DNA from: Fidelibacterota bacterium
GTDB lineage: Bacteria; Fidelibacterota; UBA8477; JABMPR01
Direction: 5' to 3'
Length of the DNA stretch: 64,000 nt
Assembly (NCBI GenBank): GCA_016784545.1
Contig: JADHUM010000002.1
Coordinates: 55,735 to 119,734 of the forward strand
In this document: positions 60,001-63,000 of the stretch, one piece after another
Layout of the letters: each line of letters opens with the position of its first letter
Position numbering within the stretch: position 1 is the stretch's first letter
Position numbers: made by a program

Positions 60001-63000
60001 GCTTTGAGGTTGGTTTCTTCTTCAAATTGTTTGACATAAAAGCGATCTGTCTTGCCATACAGACGCCAATCCAGATAGCGCAGGTTGTCGCCGGGACCAT
60101 AGGCTCGGTGTTCAGCAAACTCAACTGAAAATCCATGATAGGGGCTTTTGTGGAGACCCACAATAAATCCCTCAACCACCATACGAGCGCGGAGTTGCAT
60201 ATTCGCCAGAGTCGCCAGGGTGCGGGGATTTAAATATTTTCGTTTATCAGTTGCCAAATTATGTTCCTGTATGTTTTAGTCCTGCTTCTGTATTCGTCTC
60301 CTTCGAGAGCCTCAGGATGACGAAACCCCTAACCTAACTCCCAACTCCTAACTCCTAACTTCTAACTTCTAACTTCTAACTTCTAACTTCTAACTCAAAA
60401 TGGATTAACCAGAGCCATCCTCAAATACGACCTATCCCAAAAACTTACTTCACTACCTTCAGCAGTGCCTGCCCAGTAATCCGCGTCCCCGCCGAAGCCA
60501 TAGGCAAGCGTAACCAGGGGAAGTTTAGCCACGCTGATATCAAATTTCAGTTCAGCTCCATAGGTTTCCAGTGCTTTTTGTGAATTTGAAATATATCCAA
60601 AATCATAAAAAAGTGCCGATGTAATATTCTGCACACCGAGACCAAAAAAATTGACCGGGACGTCTTCTAGAATGGGCATGCGCAATTCTATTACAGAAAA
60701 AATGAGTTCGCTGGCTGGATACTGACCGACTTGTCCACGTAAACTATAGGATTCCGGACCGTCAAATAAGCCCGTACTCCGAATAGCTGTCATGTACTGT
60801 GTTGAAAAATATAGTGGCCCTGTCTCCGAAAAGCCCAGCTCGTCCTGGATTCGTATGTCACCTGATTGCCCCACATATTTCATCCGTCCATAGAGAACCA
60901 CTGGCAGGGTGGGGATATCATAATTGAAAAAGCCCTCCAGCCAATATTTGTTGTAATCATTTTCTCCCCAGACACTGGAAAGAGCCCGCTCTGCATGGGC
61001 GAGTATTCCCAACCCGTGACGTGGTAGAAAATAGGTTGATGCATGGGGTCTCTGAGATTTCCAGATATAGGTCAACCCAACATTGAATTCCTCAGTTGTC
61101 GGCGTGGGAACAATTTGCCCTGTCTCTGAATCTTCAAGGTCATCAAAATTCATCAAATCCCGGCGCATGAACTGAAACCTCCAAAGGAGACTATGATTCG
61201 AGGACAGGGATTGACCCGTGTTCATTGGAAAACTGGCTGCCAGGCCAACACCATTCCGATTTTCGATAAAATTGTACCTGTAGGTGCTGTAATAATTCAT
61301 GCTTAAGTTTTTCATTCCATAAAAATGGAGTGCCGGTAAAAATTGAAGATTGGTATAGCTGAAATATCCACCAAGATAATTATCGAAGTAGGGGATAAAT
61401 CCACCCAACTGAAAAATATGTTTTCCCAGAGCATCTTCCACAGCCCCCAGTAGGAGCAAGGCATCACCCAGAGGCCAGATAAACTTAAACAGGGGTCGTA
61501 TTGTTTTCAGAGATCGATATGGCTGGGGCTTTTGTAACAGCATATCAGCCTTATAGTCAATTGGTGGCAACTCAATGTCTGGAGCCTTTGTCCTCCAGGC
61601 ATTAAATGGCTCTCTGATCTGGAGACCAAGAGCTGGAGCCACCCGAGATGCTTCAACTGCCACGATTCTCACCGTATCAACATCGGCAAGTGTGGAGGAA
61701 ATTATCCTGTTCGATTTGGGAAGTCTTTGCCTGGAATAAATGCCTTCTGCAACATCTGTCATCTGAGTCACTAAAAGACTATCCATATCTACTCGATACA
61801 GATTAGGCGTTGAATTACGATATGAGGTATATACAATGGCTGATCCATCACTTGACCAGACGGGATAGACATCTTCTTCCGGATCGTTGGTGACCTTTTG
61901 GAATTCCGTACCGTCCACATTCAAGATGGCAATATCTACATCACCATTGACATCCTGAATCATAAAGGTCAGTTTTTTTCCATCTGGTGATAAATCGAGA
62001 TCTTGAATCTGGACATCCCCCTCAAAGTGACTCAATTGAATTCGCTTCCCTGAATCGATATTCTGATAAAAAATATGAGTGGTCTCCAGGGGGTGAGCCA
62101 CAAAAAATACACCCTGTCCATCATGGGCAAAGACGGGATGAAGGGCTCTGAAGTTTTCAGTGATCCAGCGAATCTTTTTTGTCTCCACATCAATGAGGCG
62201 CAGATCGTTTAAAAGCGAACCGTGGCTCCCACGGTGATATTCAGCAACAACAAGTTGTTTTGAGTCTGGAGACCATGCTGGATCTCCATTAAATCGTCCG
62301 TAGTGAATCTCCTTTACCTGGCGAGTCGAATCAGTGCTTTGCAAATAGAGCCCAGAGTCCCGCATTTTTTTATCGCGCCGACCCACTACGGCGATGGTTT
62401 CAGTATCTGGTGATATTGATGCACTTTGCACCCTTGTGAAACCCTTGAGAGAAAGAGGTTCCCCCACCTCGCCAATGGTCTCCTTTTGGGCTTTATAGCC
62501 AAAGTAATACGTATTCATGGCTCGGCGCCACTCTTCATCAAAAGTTACCAAAGATTGTCCTGTAGCTTCCTTGAAGGCCGTTTTGAAGTCATACCAATAC
62601 GGGTATTTTTTTTGTTCTTTCATTAGATAAAGACGATGATTTGAAATTTTGACCAGGGTAGAATCACCATACTTCCAGGCCAGATATAGAACTTTTGCAT
62701 AGCCATCGTCATGGGCATCCAATTGATCCATGGTATTCCGGTAAGTGTGTATTTTCATTCTGGAATCACTGCGACCTACACGCCAGACTTCCGTCATGTA
62801 TTCAGCCATCCCTTCAATCCACCAGGCCGGAATACTGATAGCCCCGAATATTCCTGCCCAGGTTCCATGGGCCTGAAACTGGACGATGTGCTGAAATTCG
62901 TGGGTTATCACCAGCTTCAACCATTTGTCCGAACCGCCAAAATGTCCAGCCACATCATTCTGGCTGACCCAGATAAAAATCTGATTGCTGGGCATGGCAA

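Follow-up and report, generated by a model that had tools for sequence, protein, structure and literature searches.

Tandem direct repeats of 7-nt units are the most abundant class of long simple sequence repeats (LSSRs) in many genomes (Mrazek 2007, as cited in PMC4679880). Here we describe such an array in a marine population of Candidatus Marinimicrobia, on a 64-kb stretch of contig JADHUM010000002.1 (the window, meaning the whole stretch of DNA analyzed; all positions count from its first base), where it lies in the spacer between a gene encoding a 1004-aa PD40 protein and a gene encoding a DUF58 protein. The G-rich heptamers of Xanthomonas and Nostoc, GGGAATC and GGGGAYT, have their purine-rich strand as the sense strand and lie within 50 bp of a stop codon, which many of them overlap (Rehm et al. 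2015, PMC4692102), and this is the same position and strand bias that is seen here. Transcript starts and stops are enriched at the G-rich repeats, and their function is unresolved (PMC4692102). The TAACTGA direct repeats of marine Beggiatoaceae, Cyanobacteria, and Bacteroidetes lack structure as RNA, and strains differ in them by 7-nt indels; most sets, of 2–6 copies, immediately precede a start codon in forward orientation and have been proposed as translational-regulator sites, and a role in rearrangement has been proposed for long heptamer arrays (MacGregor 2015, PMC4679880). The one proven heptamer switch is the phase-variable (ATCTTTC)n repeat in the 5′ untranslated region of the H. influenzae hmw1A and hmw2A genes (PMC12721329). 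In this case, at least 11 units separate a mapped promoter from the start codon and pair with a G-rich arm, and RNase III cuts the resulting long hairpin (PMC12721329).

The window array is a further case of the known class of heptameric intergenic repeats, described as LSSRs or as sequences like the short tandemly repeated repetitive (STRR) heptamers of cyanobacteria. Like members of that class, it repeats a 7-nt unit in tandem, directly and fewer than 10 times, and it has an intergenic location, mixed unit variants, an unproven function, a purine-rich sense strand at or overlapping a stop codon, and length polymorphism between related strains in 7-nt steps. Our literature search found no report of heptameric intergenic repeats in Marinimicrobia, and the array adds this group to their hosts. 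The AGTTAGA/AGTTAGG unit differs from the G-rich heptamers of Xanthomonas and Nostoc in that it cannot form a G-quadruplex. With the TAACTGA repeats it shares the TAACT core (present in the + strand unit TAACTTC), the lack of RNA structure, stop codons that limit placement, 7-nt strain differences, and occurrence in scattered phyla; however, the array here is in reverse orientation and 68 nt from the next start, and the last two bases of the unit differ. With the hmw repeat it shares the unit length, copy-number polymorphism, and a location upstream of genes for cell-surface proteins, whereas neither a promoter consensus nor a long hairpin with a complementary arm was found at the window spacer. 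We favor, with a probability of about 0.6, the reading that the tract is a heptamer microsatellite within a transcribed spacer, that it is hypermutable and near-neutral, and that its length changes by replication slippage.

The array and its copy-number alleles

Tandem Repeats Finder (TRF) reports one strong array in the window, at 60334–60395 (period 7, 8.9 copies, 94% matches, score 96, consensus CTAACTT). The next-best tandem repeat has a score of only 41, and no second period-7 array scores above 40. The array and its immediate neighbors are as follows.

60334..60396, minus strand: heptanucleotide array of nine units (TRF, sequence, and the 8–10-unit allele series in related strains)
60326..60333, minus strand: decayed partial unit at the distal end of the array, GGTTAGGG on the mRNA strand, bridging the array to a hairpin motif (direct reading)
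60395..63409, minus strand: 1004-aa PD40/Tricorn_N beta-propeller gene, its TGA overlapping the first repeat unit (Pfam PD40, 2.6e-16; Tricorn_N and Tricorn_2nd on record)
59361..60257, minus strand: DUF58/VWA gene, 298 aa, with a TTG start at 60257 (Pfam DUF58, 1.4e-45)

Read in phase over 60334–60396, the + strand units are CTAACTC, CCAACTC, CTAACTC, five copies of CTAACTT, and CTAACTC. The mRNA strand reads TG(AGTTAGA)5(AGTTAGG)2 AGTTGGG AGTTAGG TTAGGGG, with the five perfect units on the stop-codon side. The last + strand unit shares 1–2 nt with the reverse-complemented TGA (60395–60397) of the 1004-aa open reading frame (ORF). TRF and direct reading both bear out the count in the initial annotation of nine units, five of them perfect; its placement of the repeat against the stop codon, with this overlap, and its TAG and GGAG-like elements on the mRNA strand are likewise found in the sequence. 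A two-unit 14-mer probe allowing up to 2 mismatches has 7 matches in the window, 6 of which fall within the array, while dinucleotide shuffles yield a mean of 0.38 matches and none of 100 shuffles reaches 7. The array lies outside every ORF in the ORF list and carries stop codons in all six frames with a period of 7, TAG on the sense strand and TAA on the opposite strand. The spacer between the PD40 gene and DUF58 measures 137 nt, and the DUF58 start lies 68 nt past the repeat. On the + strand the array reads TAACTTC, which corresponds to the forward orientation of the TAACTGA repeats; a + strand gene starting just past the array was considered and rejected, as its ATG at 60400 reaches a stop after two codons.

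Exact look-ups of the DUF58 and 1004-aa proteins retrieved related loci (numbered with the prefix L), which are contigs of aquatic metagenomes and metagenome-assembled genomes (MAGs). The NCBI organism names in the 90% cluster of the DUF58 protein are Candidatus Marinimicrobia, Neomarinimicrobiota, and FCB group, and the host is a marine Candidatus Marinimicrobia population. A cyanobacterial host, which the STRR repeats had brought to mind, was rejected on these names. Loci approximately 96–98% identical to the window carry four alleles, of 8, 9 (in two unit compositions), or 10 units, with otherwise identical flanks. Their AGTTAGA and AGTTAGG units are distributed as follows.

5 AGTTAGA + 2 AGTTAGG: window, L001, L006, L010, L013
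5 AGTTAGA + 1 AGTTAGG: L002, L005, L009
6 AGTTAGA + 1 AGTTAGG: L008, L165
7 AGTTAGA + 1 AGTTAGG: L007

Copy number is therefore not invariant among related strains, the comparison that the initial annotation had named as a check, and the slippage-prone tract it described is seen as a length series in independent assemblies. Three of the four alleles were recovered in at least two independent assemblies each and the array is only 63 nt long, which makes it unlikely that the alleles are assembly artefacts. The window's own strain, defined by 100% identical flanks, is represented by contigs from at least four assemblies, with one allele throughout at the level of the assembly consensus.

The contrast between the array and its surroundings is seen in a 2-kb alignment of nine loci, in which all differences between 60584 and 59922 (662 nt) are confined to the array. 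The flanks of this stretch contain 35 single-nucleotide polymorphism (SNP) columns in approximately 1340 nt (about 1 site in 38), a density at which some 17 SNPs would be expected in the 662 nt, where none is observed (Poisson P(0) of about 3e-8). The SNP-free stretch at 59922–60584, which runs from the 3′ end of the PD40 gene across the spacer and through the first third of DUF58, is probably a tract of recent recombination or exchange, or else the mark of a gene-specific sweep. Compared between strains at the consensus level, the array has undergone at least three changes in length or composition, against zero point changes in the 662 neighboring bases. By a rough estimate, the array changes, per tract, at least 3 orders of magnitude faster than the per-site substitution rate. 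The tract is hypermutable, and the data are compatible with rates below or at those of classical contingency loci.

Shorter tracts of the same kind are stable. An (AGTTAAA)3(AGTTAGG)3 tract has the same copy number in 11 contigs and a tract of 2 + 2 units is the same in 6 contigs; among the lineages compared, variation is confined to the tract with five or more perfect units. This pattern is in line with slippage that depends on length.

Under the favored reading, 7-nt units would be gained and lost by slipped-strand mispairing at replication, and the spacer would be read through within a polycistronic moxR-PD40-DUF58 transcript. Changes of one or two units would hardly affect DUF58 and the downstream genes, if at all, such that the tract would act as a spacer and not as an on/off switch. 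The array would have grown from a short ancestral (AGTTAGG)-type tract, with new AGTTAGA units added at the stop-codon end. The locus itself is of little import, yet it offers a clean natural case of a heptamer microsatellite outpacing the SNPs of its flanks, and the array can be used as a strain marker in this uncultured marine Marinimicrobia population.

The spacer ahead of DUF58 in diverged lineages

Upstream spacers were compared among the DUF58 proteins of one 90% cluster (at least 90% identity). The arrangements ahead of DUF58 are given below.

L161, L162: MoxR, then 56 nt to DUF58, without PD40 gene or repeat
L154: PD40 gene, then 14 nt to DUF58, without repeat
L003, L004, L146–153: 971-aa PD40 gene and HAD hydrolase gene, then 33 nt to DUF58, without repeat
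L155–160: TGA + (AGTTAGA)(AGTTAG) + 34-nt insert + (AAGTTAGG)(AGTTAGG)AG + variant of the 27-nt motif, in six identical contigs
L136–145, L164: TAG + (AGTTAAA)3(AGTTAGG)3 + unrelated 100-nt spacer without the motif, in eleven contigs with the same unit count

In other lineages, the number of units ahead of a DUF58 gene whose product is at least 90% identical is thus 0, 4, or 6. Where DUF58 lies 14, 33, or 56 nt behind the preceding gene, neither the repeat nor the 27-nt motif is present. Because DUF58 genes with products of at least 90% identity occur behind spacers with neither element, both are dispensable for DUF58. The same short distances of 14–56 nt in relatives suggest that DUF58 is probably co-transcribed with the gene preceding it. 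A scan of metagenomes anchored on the PD40 gene end returned two loci, one of them already known; the other, L134, has a homologous gene end with zero repeat units.

The heptamer tract is old at the PD40 stop codon, where three lineages have it in common. The older unit that they share appears to be AGTTAGG, and each lineage has apparently expanded a variant of its own at the stop-codon end. In L155–L160, the short heptamer tract is split by the 34-nt insert CTTGCCACGACGAAGCACGTAGTGCGAAGACGGG, and the moxR/PD40 spacer in the same contigs has grown to 350–400 nt and contains several hairpin-type motifs, including one of the GTCATTGTGAGG...GCAATCTCC type.

The 27-nt motif lies immediately 3′ of the repeat tract and on the mRNA strand reads TTTCGTCATCCTGAGGCYCTCGAAGGA, also written TTTCGTCATCCTGAGGCTCTCGAAGGA. 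Three copies were seen, a variant included, and they place the motif on both flanks of the 1004-aa gene.

60292..60325, minus strand: hairpin motif copy 1, 27–34 nt, TTTCGTCATCCTGAGGCTCTCGAAGGAGACGAAT, the 27-bp motif called promoter/operator-like in the initial annotation (direct-repeat family D10, alignment)
63437..63470, minus strand: hairpin motif copy 2, between the MoxR stop and the 1004-aa start, 88% identical (family D10, alignment)
63518..63540, plus strand: motif variant GTCATCCCGAGCGGAGTCGAGGG, in opposite orientation, in the MoxR/1004-aa spacer (sequence)

As RNA, the motif forms a hairpin of −14.6 kcal/mol (z −1.7) that is not followed by a U tract. A search for the variant pattern in the 165 loci matched Marinimicrobia loci only, and the motif family was noted in L154–L160, L136, L164, and L165. 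The motif shares with repetitive extragenic palindromic (REP) sequences and bacterial interspersed mosaic elements (BIMEs) a short, imperfect hairpin, multiple copies that face either way in the spacers of a gene cluster, and presence or absence between close relatives; it differs in that its sequence is unrelated and without an Rfam match, and in that only three copies were seen. The Rfam search (59000–64000, E up to 1) gave no match. The motif resembles a small dispersed element of the REP type, not an operator. The motif was also considered as a target duplication left by insertion of the PD40 gene, which was rejected because the motif is missing on one or both sides of the gene in L154, L003, and L161.

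A promoter and terminator scan of 60258–60394 found no sigma-70-type promoter and no intrinsic terminator, although the sigma-70 consensus may not be the promoter type of this phylum, and overall scan counts were not above those of shuffles. The repeat RNA is unstructured on both strands (centroid energy 0). The whole spacer has a minimum free energy of −28.4 kcal/mol, compared with a shuffle mean of −29.9 (z +0.47), and the repeat is unpaired in its centroid fold. No hairpin between the heptamer tract and a complementary arm was found in the spacer fold, and no inverted partner of the window array was found.

These data bear on the proposal, made in the initial annotation, that the tract may act on DUF58 and the transporter genes that follow as a contingency switch. 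In a graded or phase-variable form of this idea, the tract would form part of the 5′ leader or the promoter region of DUF58 and the outer-membrane genes, and their expression would change with unit number, with hmw1A as the model. Outer-membrane protein genes are often under contingency-locus control, and the genes downstream do encode outer-membrane proteins. The polymorphism between strains is consistent with a switch as well, but the observed range of 8–10 units is narrow and every assembly of the same strain shows one consensus allele. The AGGAG-like elements in the G-type units also speak for a switch; no promoter consensus was seen in the spacer or near it. The hmw repeat is a proven precedent for a heptamer switch, but its mechanism requires a long hairpin and RNase III (PMC12721329), whereas the repeat here is unpaired in a spacer no more stable than its shuffles. 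In sister lineages, moreover, DUF58 lies 14–56 nt behind the preceding gene, without a repeat. We consider a switch unlikely at this locus. What stands of the earlier interpretation is the copy-number polymorphism; the switch function finds no support in a tract that is outside ORFs, dispensable, and unstructured, and whose counterpart spacers in relatives are operon-like in length.

The same unit across bacterial phyla

Exact (AGTTAGA)3 (AGTTAGAAGTTAGAAGTTAGA) was searched in species-representative genomes totaling 596 Gb, and the statements in this section refer to the matches listed (L014–L133). At least 120 genome stretches in many phyla contain the sequence, compared with a chance expectation of approximately 0.3 for one 21-mer in 596 Gb, a figure that a tandem array of any heptamer would exceed. 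The hosts include many Flavobacteriaceae, Ignavibacteria, Acidobacteriota, Planctomycetota, filamentous cyanobacteria, and others, as well as another Neomarinimicrobiota MAG (L031). Genomes around the matches are heptamer-rich: 865 kb of surrounding sequence contains 257 arrays of period 7, about ten times the number for any other period (27 arrays have period 8, 23 have period 9, and 7 have period 6), and there is roughly one extra heptamer array per 6 kb near a match. The arrays are often mixed with related units, and many are followed by an inverted copy nearby, giving long hairpins after genes.

The arrays are also placed asymmetrically. With the loci oriented by the AGTTAGA strand, 51 of 106 have a gene boundary no more than 15 nt from the 5′ edge of the array, compared with 9 of 101 for the 3′ edge (binomial p = 3e-8). 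In 37 of those 51 cases the boundary is the stop codon of an ORF on the same strand, often the array's own TAG, and in the remaining 14 it is the start of an ORF on the opposite strand. Many of the stop-abutting arrays have offsets of −6 or −13 nt, at which a TAG within the repeat serves as the stop of the ORF. The median distance from edge to boundary is 17 nt for the 5′ edge and 114 nt for the 3′ edge, and a stricter ORF cut-off gives the same result. ORF calling does not account for this asymmetry, because both strands of the unit carry stops in all frames. The window array, with its purine-rich strand as the sense strand directly after a stop codon, represents the commonest arrangement for this unit.

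Such placement raises the possibility of a cis-acting element at the 3′ end of the PD40 gene that is selected for its stop-adjacent position, whether as a stop block in all frames, as a platform for RNA- or single-strand-binding proteins, or as a 3′-end or insulator element setting the ratio of cistrons. In favor of such an element, three diverged lineages have a tract starting at the stop codon while the remainder of the spacer is unrelated, but L134 and L154 have the homologous gene end and no array. One or two units would suffice to stop all frames, leaving nine unexplained. We know of no protein that binds the heptamer repeat, which also counts against a binding platform. The 37 stop-abutting loci in many phyla, and the long hairpins formed with nearby inverted copies, argue for a gene-end role, whereas the window array has neither an inverted partner nor a U tract. 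A similar bias, with enriched transcript starts and stops, has been reported for other heptamers (PMC4692102). On balance, a selected gene-end element is improbable here.

The gene-end data nevertheless weigh against the near-neutral microsatellite that we favor, together with several other points. A heptamer tract starts at one shared stop codon in three diverged lineages, and across phyla the arrays abut gene ends far above chance; this placement hints at a constraint or a gene-end mechanism beyond a purely neutral model. By contrast with the hundreds of arrays in the heptamer-rich genomes from which the class was described, such as those of Xanthomonas and Nostoc, the 64-kb window has one. 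In addition, near-neutrality of the tract is deduced from sequence comparison, and co-transcription, which we would expect at this locus, from the spacer lengths of relatives.

A broader version of the gene-end idea would treat arrays of the AGTTAGA unit as functional gene-end elements conserved across phyla, with unit number in the Marinimicrobia cluster tuning read-through from moxR-PD40 into DUF58 and the outer-membrane genes. We regard this as very improbable, and it is kept alive because (AGTTAGA)n recurs in many phyla with the edge bias given above. The arrays could possibly be bound by some widespread factor with affinity for RNA or single strands, for which they would serve as a platform, or transcription- or translation-coupled expansion could possibly seed them at stop codons. 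An identical 7-nt unit in distant phyla, its purine-rich strand abutting stop codons, may be worth a dedicated study. The gene-end bias of G-rich heptamers is now repeated for a unit without G-quadruplex capacity, and why heptamers, and why gene ends, becomes a question at the level of the class.

The gene cluster and its mosaic structure

All genes of the cluster are on the minus strand, in the order MoxR, 1004-aa PD40, the 137-nt spacer, DUF58, a receptor-type gene, a 152-aa protein, and an outer-membrane beta-barrel. The members not yet located are the following.

63558..64000, minus strand: MoxR-type AAA+ ATPase, 3′ part, the first cluster gene, cut by the window end (Pfam AAA_lid_2)
57090..59345, minus strand: outer-membrane gene of TonB-dependent-receptor type (CarboxypepD_reg + Plug + barrel), downstream of DUF58 (Pfam)

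The complete MoxR gene, present in L001 and L011, encodes 323 aa (bpMoxR/AAA_3). Members of the DUF58 90% cluster are named “DUF58 domain-containing protein” at NCBI. In the region that aligns with 60198–60257, the DUF58 start codon is across lineages TTG, GTG, or ATG at one shared codon position with synonymous changes after it, which argues that the 298-aa start at 60257 is right. The 279-aa NCBI models, which start at an ATG 19 codons downstream, are probably truncated at the start.

From moxR to DUF58 (60257–63557) the cluster is a mosaic, in which the PD40 gene is absent in some lineages and is replaced in others by the 971-aa version with an HAD gene. The tract and the hairpin motifs could mark a hot spot for the swapping of cassettes (the PD40 and HAD genes), with the repeat as a scar or a promoter of such events. 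The PD40 gene is indeed absent in L161 and L162, the HAD gene is inserted in L003 and L146–153, the 27-nt motif is present on both flanks of the PD40 gene, the 662 nt free of SNPs suggest a recent exchange, and a rearrangement role has been proposed by MacGregor for long heptamer arrays (PMC4679880). Identity between the window and L003/L004 is 95–97% starting exactly at the DUF58 start (60256) and 87% and 70% upstream, so that the spacer is also a boundary of the mosaic; the break in homology is thus at the start codon and not at the repeat. This origin is very unlikely, given also that lineages with rearranged neighbors lack the repeat, that the motif is missing on one side in L154 and on both sides in L003 and L161, and that no transposase or integrase gene is among the genes called in these loci.

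In one lineage, a DNA_alkylation-repair gene is inserted after DUF58. A tRNA scan of the window found none. Elsewhere in the window, at 27116–28511, there are two diverged direct repeats 858 nt apart, with 170 nt at 75% identity and 74 nt at 70%, which probably represent an internal duplication within or between coding sequences.

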